This document shows positions 15,600 to 15,852 of a DNA stretch of 44,959 bases, one piece after another. The position numbers were made by a program, and so were the translations under genes. The stretch lies in the NCBI RefSeq assembly GCF_003334255.1, contig NZ_QOWU01000045.1; one strand, 5' to 3'. The DNA is from Escherichia coli (GTDB lineage: Bacteria; Pseudomonadota; Gammaproteobacteria; Enterobacterales; Enterobacteriaceae). Each line of letters opens with the position of its first letter. Positions within the stretch are counted from its first letter, which is position 1. The notes below the pieces were generated by a model. That model did not search any database, had not been told where the DNA came from, and saw only the letters and a program-made list of their open reading frames with translations.

Positions 15600-15851
15600 G
15601 CTTCTGGCTTTTAACAGATAAAAAGAGACCGAACACGATTCCTGTATTCGGTCCAGGGAAATGGCTCTTGGGAGAGAGCCGTGCGCTAAAAGTTGGCATT
15701 AATGCAGGCTTAGTTGCCTTGCCCTTTAAGAATAGATGACGACGCCAGGTTTTCCAGTTTGCGTGCAAAATGGTCAATAAAAAGCGTGGTGGTCATCAGC
15801 TGAAATGTTAAAAACCGCCCGTTCTGGTGAAAGAACTGAGGCGGTTTTTTT
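15600..15851 (+). ncRNA. ryeA: sRNA RyeA (SraC), antisense partner of SdsR; ends approximate
   Basis: RyeA is known to be encoded opposite SdsR; a strong plus-strand terminator at 15811-15852 has no other plus-strand gene to serve. The 5' end is not determinable from sequence. Confidence 0.45.
15617..15722 (-). ncRNA. sdsR: sRNA SdsR (RyeB), RpoS-dependent
   Basis: Minus-strand sequence GCAAGGCAACTAAGCCTGCATTAATGCCAACTTTTAGCGCACGGCTCTCTCCCAAGAGCCATTTCCCTGGACCGAATACAGGAATCGTGTTCGGTCTCTTTTTATCTG matches SdsR as I remember it, in the expected pphA-yebY intergenic position; ends in a hairpin plus U-run. Confidence 0.8.
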
Positions 15852-15852
15852 A
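15811..15852. terminator. Bidirectional rho-independent terminator (RyeA on +, yebY on -)
   Basis: AAAAACCGCCCGTTC-TGGTGAAA-GAACTGAGGCGG-TTTTTTTATT: GC-rich stem with an A-run 5' and a T7 run 3', so it works in both orientations. Confidence 0.7.

Follow-up and report, generated by a model that had tools for sequence, protein, structure and literature searches.

Introduction

The closest described relative of the locus analyzed here is the pair of small RNAs (sRNAs) from Escherichia coli K-12 that comprises SdsR (also RyeB; Rfam family RF00111, locus b4433) and its antisense partner RyeA (also SraC; RF00101, b4432). The stationary-phase accumulation of SdsR, its binding of Hfq and its repression of targets in trans have been published for the K-12 sequence, to which the present one is identical, and for Salmonella (including Frohlich et al. 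2012), and both the RpoS dependence of sdsR and the role of the C at position −13 of its promoter have been described (Frohlich et al. 2012; Choi et al. 2019, PMC6610125). E-sigma70 is the sole holoenzyme that transcribes ryeA (Choi et al. 2019, PMC6610125), and mutation of the ryeA promoter in MG1655 abolishes RyeA. The ryeA-ryeB pair constitutes the top (most abundant) stationary-phase cluster of RNase III-cut double-stranded RNA in E. coli. Overexpression of SdsR kills cells through repression of yhcB and RyeA rescues them, which led Choi et al. to apply the toxin–antitoxin label; the label is based on phenotypes that a single laboratory obtained by overexpression. RyeA has also been described in Salmonella and Shigella, relative to which the E. 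coli promoter is placed ∼35 bp further downstream (Frohlich et al. 2012).

More distant systems share individual features with this pair. CJnc180/CJnc190 of Campylobacter jejuni (PMC8687705) likewise pits a trans-acting sRNA against an antisense sRNA that overlaps it fully, and the resulting duplex is cut by RNase III. However, its sequence and host organism are unrelated, and there RNase III matures the active sRNA, whereas SdsR and RyeA are both degraded. In type I toxin–antitoxin systems (ibs/sib, ldr/rdl) an antisense RNA likewise neutralizes the product of the opposite strand through duplex formation and RNase III cleavage, but the SdsR "toxin" is a regulatory RNA that acts on the yhcB mRNA, not the mRNA for a toxic peptide, and its toxicity is observed upon overexpression. 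Finally, the last ∼23 bp of sdsR form an attB site at which, as at the attachment sites in the 3′ ends of tRNA genes and ssrA, the phage restores the 3′ end of the gene. The difference from the tRNA and ssrA sites is that sdsR encodes a regulatory sRNA opposed by an antisense RNA, so that integration replaces the promoter and 5′ end of the latter.

Here, we describe this locus in a 44,959-base stretch of E. coli DNA (the window; all positions refer to it), in which an earlier note had proposed an SdsR/RyeA pair with a shared bidirectional terminator. We assign a probability of about 0.96 to the reading that the classical sdsR/ryeA sRNA pair is the content of the gap between pphA and yebY. The locus is genuine yet ordinary, and it is already known, having been documented in detail. 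SdsR matches its K-12 counterpart in sequence, in its place after yebY, and in its sigma-S promoter, three-hairpin fold and terminator, and RyeA is identical over the 272-nt annotated transcript with its promoter and terminator included; no difference was found for either RNA.

Results

Identity and annotation of the locus

The entire pphA–yebY gap (15486–15880) is 100% identical to E. coli K-12 MG1655, and a 451-base query around the locus gave matches in 5,426 of 5,426 complete RefSeq E. coli genomes, with identities of 95–100%. An Rfam scan of the whole window at gathering thresholds returned exactly two matches, RF00101 and RF00111, both full length. The curated MG1655 records for ryeA (b4432, 272 nt) and sdsR (b4433, 104 nt) project onto the intervals given in Table 1 (for sdsR, the interval in parentheses). 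The proposal that the gap holds an SdsR/RyeA pair is thus borne out by the Rfam matches together with the identity to MG1655 and its annotation. The span of 15600–15852 that had been assigned to the pair does locate it, but its left edge omits the first 18 nt of RyeA, the 5′ end of which is at 15582. Automatic (PGAP) records carry no feature at the locus, neither the sRNAs nor an ORF, and this blank may explain why the earlier note took the locus to be unannotated.

The sequence itself, the model matches, the folds, the K-12 identity and the conservation pattern all come from the present analysis. The transcript ends, sigma-factor dependence, RNase III degradation, interference and toxin/antitoxin behavior come from experiments on the identical K-12 sequence; they are transferred to the window by that identity, and would be expected to apply here in the same form. 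The ends in particular were defined in MG1655 by primer extension, 5′ and 3′ RACE and in vitro transcription (Choi et al. 2019, PMC6610125), and the sequence is the same, so the earlier suggestion that the ends are worth mapping in this strain is moot.

Table 1. Features in and around the sdsR/ryeA locus, in window coordinates.
Feature	Position	Strand	Basis and remarks
pphA (phosphoprotein phosphatase 1)	14829..15485	−	ORF list and K-12 annotation; downstream of sdsR
ryeA sigma-70 promoter	15544..15574	+	sequence read-out; hexamer assignment putative
RyeA (SraC) antisense sRNA, about 270 nt	15582..15853	+	K-12 b4432; RACE and primer-extension ends; RF00101
63-aa ORF with TTG start, spurious	15586..15777	−	ORF list; inside RyeA (15582–15853)
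attB core, last ∼23 bp of sdsR	15620..15642		junction in strain 12867; extent of core approximate
SdsR intrinsic terminator (its own)	15620..15654	−	terminator scan; fold −15.8 kcal/mol
SdsR (RyeB) sRNA, 100–102 nt, sigma-S-dependent, Hfq-associated, trans-acting	15621..15722 (K-12 record 15620–15723)	−	RF00111; K-12 annotation; mapped ends
sdsR sigma-S promoter	15729..15758	−	sequence read-out; −10 TATTCT, C at −13, upstream block CTGGAAAA
Bidirectional intrinsic terminator, A5–hairpin–T7	15810..15851	both	inverted repeat; folds; RyeA 3′ ends
yebY	15881..16222	−	ORF list and annotation; last gene of the yobA-yebZ(copD)-yebY operon, convergent with ryeA

SdsR, its promoter and its terminator

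RF00111 (SdsR_RyeB) matches the minus strand from 15719 to 15620 with 114.4 bits, against a gathering score of 38, and the match covers model positions 1–100 of 100. The earlier note had recognized SdsR on this strand and named the absence of a covariance-model match at 15617–15722 as the observation that would count against it; when this was checked, a full-length match was present. In MG1655 the 5′ end of SdsR lies 1 nt downstream of the annotated 5′ end, which corresponds to window position 15722, and the 3′ ends lie at +100 to +102, corresponding to 15623–15621 (Choi et al. 2019, PMC6610125). Of the interval 15617–15722 proposed for SdsR, the 5′ end is therefore correct and the 3′ end is ∼4 nt too long. 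The gene sits directly downstream of yebY on the same strand (yebY, 15881–16222; SdsR, 15722–15621). Its promoter was read out from the sequence as a −10 element, TATTCT, at 15734–15729 (−12 to −7), 7 nt upstream of the transcription start at 15722, with the C at −13 that is a hallmark of sigma-S promoters at 15735 and the conserved upstream block CTGGAAAA at 15757–15750.

The predicted fold of SdsR comprises three hairpins, the last of which is the SdsR terminator. The terminator scan placed it as an 11-bp stem (15654–15626) followed by CUUUUU, with the U-tract at 15620–15624. Like the terminator of RyeA, it folds significantly better than shuffled sequence. Upon conversion to window coordinates, the published MG1655 3′ ends of SdsR as well as RyeA coincide with the U-tracts predicted from the sequence, and with purified polymerase both sets of 3′ ends arise from Rho-independent termination (Choi et al. 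2019, PMC6610125). The same study observed both termination and read-through at the SdsR terminator in vitro, and found that read-through generates an sdsR-pphA transcript that is the main source of pphA expression (Choi et al. 2019, PMC6610125). A second terminator, at which this read-through might fade, was sought in the spacer between sdsR and pphA, but the minus-strand fold of 15625–15486 was not significant (z = −1.3).

RyeA and the evidence that establishes it

RF00101 (SraC_RyeA) matches the plus strand at 15616–15760 with 175.1 bits, against a gathering score of 37. This match spans only 145 nt, that is, the antisense of SdsR and of the sdsR promoter, and the model also scores 127–156 bits in Yersinia, Serratia, Dickeya and Brenneria, genera that conserve neither the RyeA promoter region nor the A/T-flanked terminator. 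Because RF00101 covers only the mirror image of SdsR and scores in genera that lack the RyeA signals, it is not independent evidence for RyeA. Alignment to the Rfam RyeA model, which had been put forward as a check, therefore gives the expected match with no power to discriminate, as it would pass wherever SdsR exists. RyeA is instead established by the identity to MG1655, which includes its promoter and its terminator, together with the published transcript mapping. There, three start sites were found, corresponding to 15580–15582, of which the most downstream is the annotated or processed 5′ end at 15582; RyeA ends at +261 to +270, corresponding to 15842–15851, its longest form measuring 272 nt (Choi et al. 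2019, PMC6610125). The minimum free energy fold of RyeA has −93 kcal/mol (z = −4.3), and the short ORFs (at least 20 aa) on RyeA amount to four chance-sized frames of 23–29 aa, two on each strand.

For the ryeA promoter, a putative extended −10 element, TGtTATGGT, was picked out by eye at 15566–15574, 7 nt before the mapped RyeA starts; the candidate −35 element, TGGACT at 15544–15549 with a 19-bp spacer, is weak. The consensus promoter and terminator scan of 15400–15950 did not call this sigma-70 promoter or any other plus-strand promoter; its output was limited to the SdsR terminator and a minus-strand promoter-like site of no relevance within the end of yebY. As the scan missed both the ryeA promoter and the large terminator described below, its silence was not counted against either. 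Within the species, the ryeA promoter region (15500–15625) is present at 95% identity or more in 5426 of 5426 E. coli genomes.

Conservation across the Enterobacterales

The genome collection was scanned with a pattern taken from the SdsR core, which yielded 120 Enterobacterales loci, and 112 of the sequences were aligned. In all fetched DNA that included yebY, this gene adjoins SdsR, with its stop codon 171–242 nt from the SdsR core, the exception being one Yersinia locus (L049); pphA is next to SdsR only in Escherichia and in some Citrobacter. Across the 112 sequences the column identity of SdsR is 90–100% at nearly all positions, with 15660–15694 invariant by construction, this being the search pattern. 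The −10 and upstream blocks of the sdsR promoter are 94–100% conserved at most positions, and the block formed by the −10 element and C-13 reaches 98–100% at most positions. The outer arms of the terminator between yebY and ryeA are 70–87% conserved, and the RyeA promoter and 5′ region (15540–15619) 5–75%. Conservation of the sdsR promoter but not of the ryeA promoter region agrees with an earlier study, in which sraC was conserved only where it overlaps sdsR and the position of its promoter varied between species (Frohlich et al. 2012).

A probable bidirectional terminator between ryeA and yebY

The RyeA terminator lies downstream of the sdsR promoter, which gives a transcript of ∼250–270 nt that overlaps SdsR fully. 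It is built on a perfect 10-nt inverted repeat (15810–15819 and 15840–15849) within a longer hairpin. The plus-strand fold has −20.0 kcal/mol (z = −5.0; none of 200 shuffles did as well), and T7 follows at 15845–15851; the strong plus-strand terminator that had been read at 15811–15852 is indeed present. On the minus strand the hairpin at 15810–15851 folds with −19.8 kcal/mol (z = −6.7) and is then followed by U5, encoded by the A5 at 15810–15814. On that strand the hairpin stands 31 nt from the stop codon of yebY. A simple terminator scan missed the hairpin, the loop and internal loop of which are larger than the scan allows.

This arrangement suggests that 15810–15851 acts as a bidirectional terminator between the convergent RyeA and yobA-yebZ-yebY transcripts, with its use by yebY indicated by the position and the U-tract. 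A search of the accessible literature for a bidirectional terminator and yebY together found no paper. The earlier description of a shared bidirectional terminator was thus right about the two directions and wrong to make SdsR the partner, which would be the yebY operon, as SdsR ends ∼190 nt away at its own terminator (15626–15654). The claim that nothing but RyeA could sensibly use the hairpin was likewise too strong, since the yebY operon converges on it.

The proximity to yebY might also be taken to mean that the hairpin is the terminator of the yebY operon only, and that the RyeA 3′ end found there results from incidental processing. Its placement 31 nt after the stop codon with a U5 tail on the minus strand would fit such a reading, as would its conservation together with yebY across the Enterobacteriaceae. 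However, purified RNA polymerase yields RyeA of ∼270 nt in vitro, which is Rho-independent termination (Choi et al. 2019, PMC6610125), and the plus-strand T-tract is conserved though unneeded for minus-strand termination. An A-tract, hairpin and T-tract at the same offset were found in 78 of 118 loci, which are those of the Enterobacteriaceae, with 73 distinct hairpin cores; the first nine positions of these cores pair in 82% of cases, against 39–40% in shifted controls, and the plus-strand T-tract has five or more T in 75 of the 78. Among the same 118 loci, this design is absent in Yersinia, Serratia, Dickeya, Rahnella and their relatives. We consider a role for yebY alone to be very improbable, and retain a bidirectional terminator as the probable function. 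The p19 dsRNA cluster of ryeA-ryeB, once converted to window coordinates, extends to about 16047, a hint that some RyeA transcription may read through and yield RNA antisense to yebY.

The 63-aa open reading frame

A 63-codon frame with a TTG start runs uninterrupted through the locus on the minus strand (15777–15586), and it could be argued that it encodes a protein to which the RNA signals are secondary. The cross-species frame analysis, which was anchored on the invariant SdsR core, is decisive on this point and argues against a coding frame: the same open frame as in E. coli occurs in 2 of the 112 sequences and is broken in the other 110, most of the 112 having an in-frame stop 2–11 codons upstream of the SdsR anchor. 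Divergence at the three codon positions of the frame is 0.057/0.052/0.087 within SdsR and flat in both flanks, with no clear or consistent excess of third-position substitutions. Conservation at the locus tracks the RNA helices and promoter boxes instead of this frame.

The setting of the start codon adds to these results. The TTG has the yebY terminator on one side and the sdsR promoter on the other, which puts it ahead of the SdsR transcription start and outside any known minus-strand transcript, and no Shine–Dalgarno sequence was found in the 23 nt that precede it (GCTGATGACCACCACGCTTTTTA, directly followed by TTG). The exact 63-aa sequence is absent from ∼15 billion predicted proteins (exact look-up), and the ORF is unannotated in the K-12 and PGAP records. 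Frame, codon-position, Shine–Dalgarno and database results together uphold the earlier judgment that the ORF lies within the sRNA locus and is not a protein; that it is one after all seems to us next to inconceivable.

A phage attachment site in the 3′ end of sdsR

The attachment site in sdsR is empty in the present window. In strain 12867, a lambdoid prophage (with genes for an integrase, an excisionase, RalR, RecT and RecE) abuts the 3′ end of SdsR, and identity to the window resumes at ∼15620–15640, inside the SdsR terminator. It is the site, formed by the last 23 bp of ryeB, that PMC7380047 attributes to Balbontin et al. 2008. An integrase-side junction as in 12867 occurs in 228 of the 5,426 complete E. 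coli genomes (4%). The 451-bp query found the locus to be split in about 233–237 E. coli genomes, so that the prophage junction accounts for nearly all of the split loci. A hot spot for IS elements was considered for the split loci and rejected: the IS1A insertion inside sdsR is unique to FDAARGOS_944, and the splitting is due to the prophage junction. The window was also searched, allowing up to 3 mismatches, for another att core that would bound pphA-yebW-yebV as an integrated island, and none was found.

The RyeA promoter and the first ∼38 nt of RyeA lie on the variable side of the attachment core, and prophage integration replaces the RyeA promoter and 5′ end. This replacement offers a reason for the poor conservation of the 5′ part of RyeA across species.

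Discussion

The sequence holds nothing against the sdsR/ryeA explanation. On the basis of the K-12 experiments, SdsR would be produced in stationary phase from its sigma-S promoter, as a minus-strand transcript from 15722 to about 15621, and would act with Hfq in trans on ompD, tolC, mutS, yhcB and other mRNAs. During growth, RyeA would be made from its sigma-70 promoter, would cross the whole sdsR gene and its promoter, and would stop at ∼15851. The two RNAs could then pair perfectly over ∼102 bp, and RNase III would destroy the duplex, leading to mutual degradation, and transcription of ryeA would in addition interfere with the sdsR promoter. Through read-through of the sdsR terminator, pphA would come under the same SdsR/RyeA circuit. 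The description of the pair as a mutually antagonistic RNA module is well founded, as published work documents SdsR and RyeA experimentally as mutual antagonists.

How far RyeA itself is selected is a matter on which the evidence can be weighed differently. RyeA may be an antisense by-product of whichever promoter happens to adjoin the attB in sdsR, not selected itself and acting mainly by interference in cis, with the T-tract of the yebY terminator serving to insulate the operon. The ryeA promoter and 5′ region are on the variable side of attB and 5–75% conserved, against about 100% for SdsR; sraC conservation is limited to the overlap and its promoter varies in position (Frohlich et al. 2012); prophages replace the RyeA 5′ region in 228 E. 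coli genomes; the plus-strand T-tract is retained in 78 loci although the promoters are unconserved; and deletion of the sraC promoter raises SdsR only about 1.5-fold (Frohlich et al. 2012). Conversely, the K-12-type ryeA promoter region is fixed in E. coli at the 95% identity level noted above, and RyeA is a discrete, terminated and abundant transcript, the loss of which raises the expression of SdsR and pphA. We regard the by-product reading as possible but rather unlikely, and as compatible with the sdsR/ryeA explanation, from which it differs in emphasis.

An extended form of this idea, which we put forward tentatively and rate no higher, is that RyeA is a by-product of an insertion hot spot at which each event of integration and decay would install a new antisense promoter, leaving the T-tract as the only plus-strand element that is anciently conserved. 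The greater part of this idea goes back to Balbontin et al. 2008 and Frohlich et al. 2012, and what is new here is the reading of the T-tract as an insulator and the figures for the E. coli population. If it were true, prophage occupancy, at 4% of E. coli genomes, would re-tune SdsR and with it mutS, tolC, porins and pphA, and the T-tract of the yebY terminator would insulate a copper-homeostasis operon.

For the sdsR/ryeA pair as such, the known picture is unchanged, with small additions. The terminator is probably common to RyeA and yebY, and its design is conserved across the Enterobacteriaceae; the Rfam RyeA model alone cannot show RyeA; and the sdsR site is occupied by a prophage in 228 of the 5,426 complete E. 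coli genomes. The locus also holds a lesson for annotation, in that automatic RefSeq annotation leaves it blank and a mechanical ORF caller inserts a spurious 63-aa ORF. It remains a textbook case of mutually antagonistic sRNAs, one that ties together RpoS stress physiology, the control of mismatch repair, drug efflux and a hot spot for phage integration.

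A prophage attachment site at the SdsR 3' end

The 3' end of SdsR is a prophage attachment site, which is unoccupied in the window. In E. coli strain 12867, a lambdoid prophage with its integrase adjoins the SdsR 3' end, and among 5,426 complete E. coli genomes, 228 share this prophage/SdsR junction. An earlier description of the SdsR attachment site, in Salmonella, is that of Balbontin et al. 2008.

E. albertii, Salmonella, Serratia and Brenneria all carry part of the SdsR terminator arm a second time (AAAGACCGAAT...), ~80 nt past the SdsR 3' end. So does the strain 12867 lysogen, where this partial copy lies on the prophage side. 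The aligned position in the window carries diverged K-12-type sequence, AAAAAACGCTGGACTCAG. The partial copy could derive from integrated elements, either as a vestige or as one of their arm sites.

Klebsiella pneumoniae ATCC 13883 contains a borderline match to RydC, which scores 48.9 bits where the gathering score is 48. It is situated on the attachment site's variable side, ~170 nt away from the 3' end of SdsR; E. coli has rydC at an unrelated locus. In E. coli FDAARGOS_944, an IS1A element is inserted inside sdsR/ryeA with a target duplication of ~16 bp, splitting the sdsR promoter from most of sdsR; this is the sole genome with that junction, and its record also lists copD as a pseudogene.

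Coordinates of features at and around the sdsR/ryeA locus
Feature	Record	Coordinates	Details
Attachment site	Window	15620-15642	SdsR 3' end
Prophage junction	Strain 12867 (L124)	3870-4030	Adjoining prophage carries int, xis, ralR, recT, recE
Terminator-arm copy	Strain 12867 (L124)	~3921-3936	
Terminator-arm copy	L017, L083, L026, L074		
Aligned position of terminator-arm copy	Window	15535-15556	
RydC match	K. pneumoniae ATCC 13883 (L123)	7017-7079 (+)	
IS1A	FDAARGOS_944 (L003)	3264-4035	Window ~15698-15713
pphA start, mechanical ORF list	Window	15488	TTG, 219 aa
pphA start, curated K-12 record	Window	15485	ATG, one codon later, 218 aa
Published ryeA-ryeB RNase III-cut dsRNA cluster	K-12, older numbering	1,921,124-1,921,555	

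Annotation of RyeA and SdsR

RefSeq PGAP records of E. coli (for example, L002) annotate zero features across window positions 15486-15880; ryeA and sdsR are listed only in the curated K-12 record, as opposed to automatically annotated E. coli genomes. The start of pphA also differs between sources (see table).

The Rfam SraC_RyeA model, RF00101, scores 127-156 bits in Yersinia, Serratia, Dickeya and Brenneria (L090, L026, L014 and L074, respectively), genera that conserve neither the promoter region of RyeA nor its A/T-flanked terminator. RF00101 effectively describes SdsR and its promoter in reverse complement, and this model will therefore over-annotate RyeA.

Extent of the dsRNA cluster

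Allowing for an assumed shift in numbering from the older to the newer K-12 sequence, the ryeA-ryeB dsRNA cluster corresponds to window positions 15616-16047; so converted, it begins at the SdsR 3' end, passes the terminator and reaches the 3' half of yebY. This extent may reflect RyeA read-through that yields antisense RNA to yebY.
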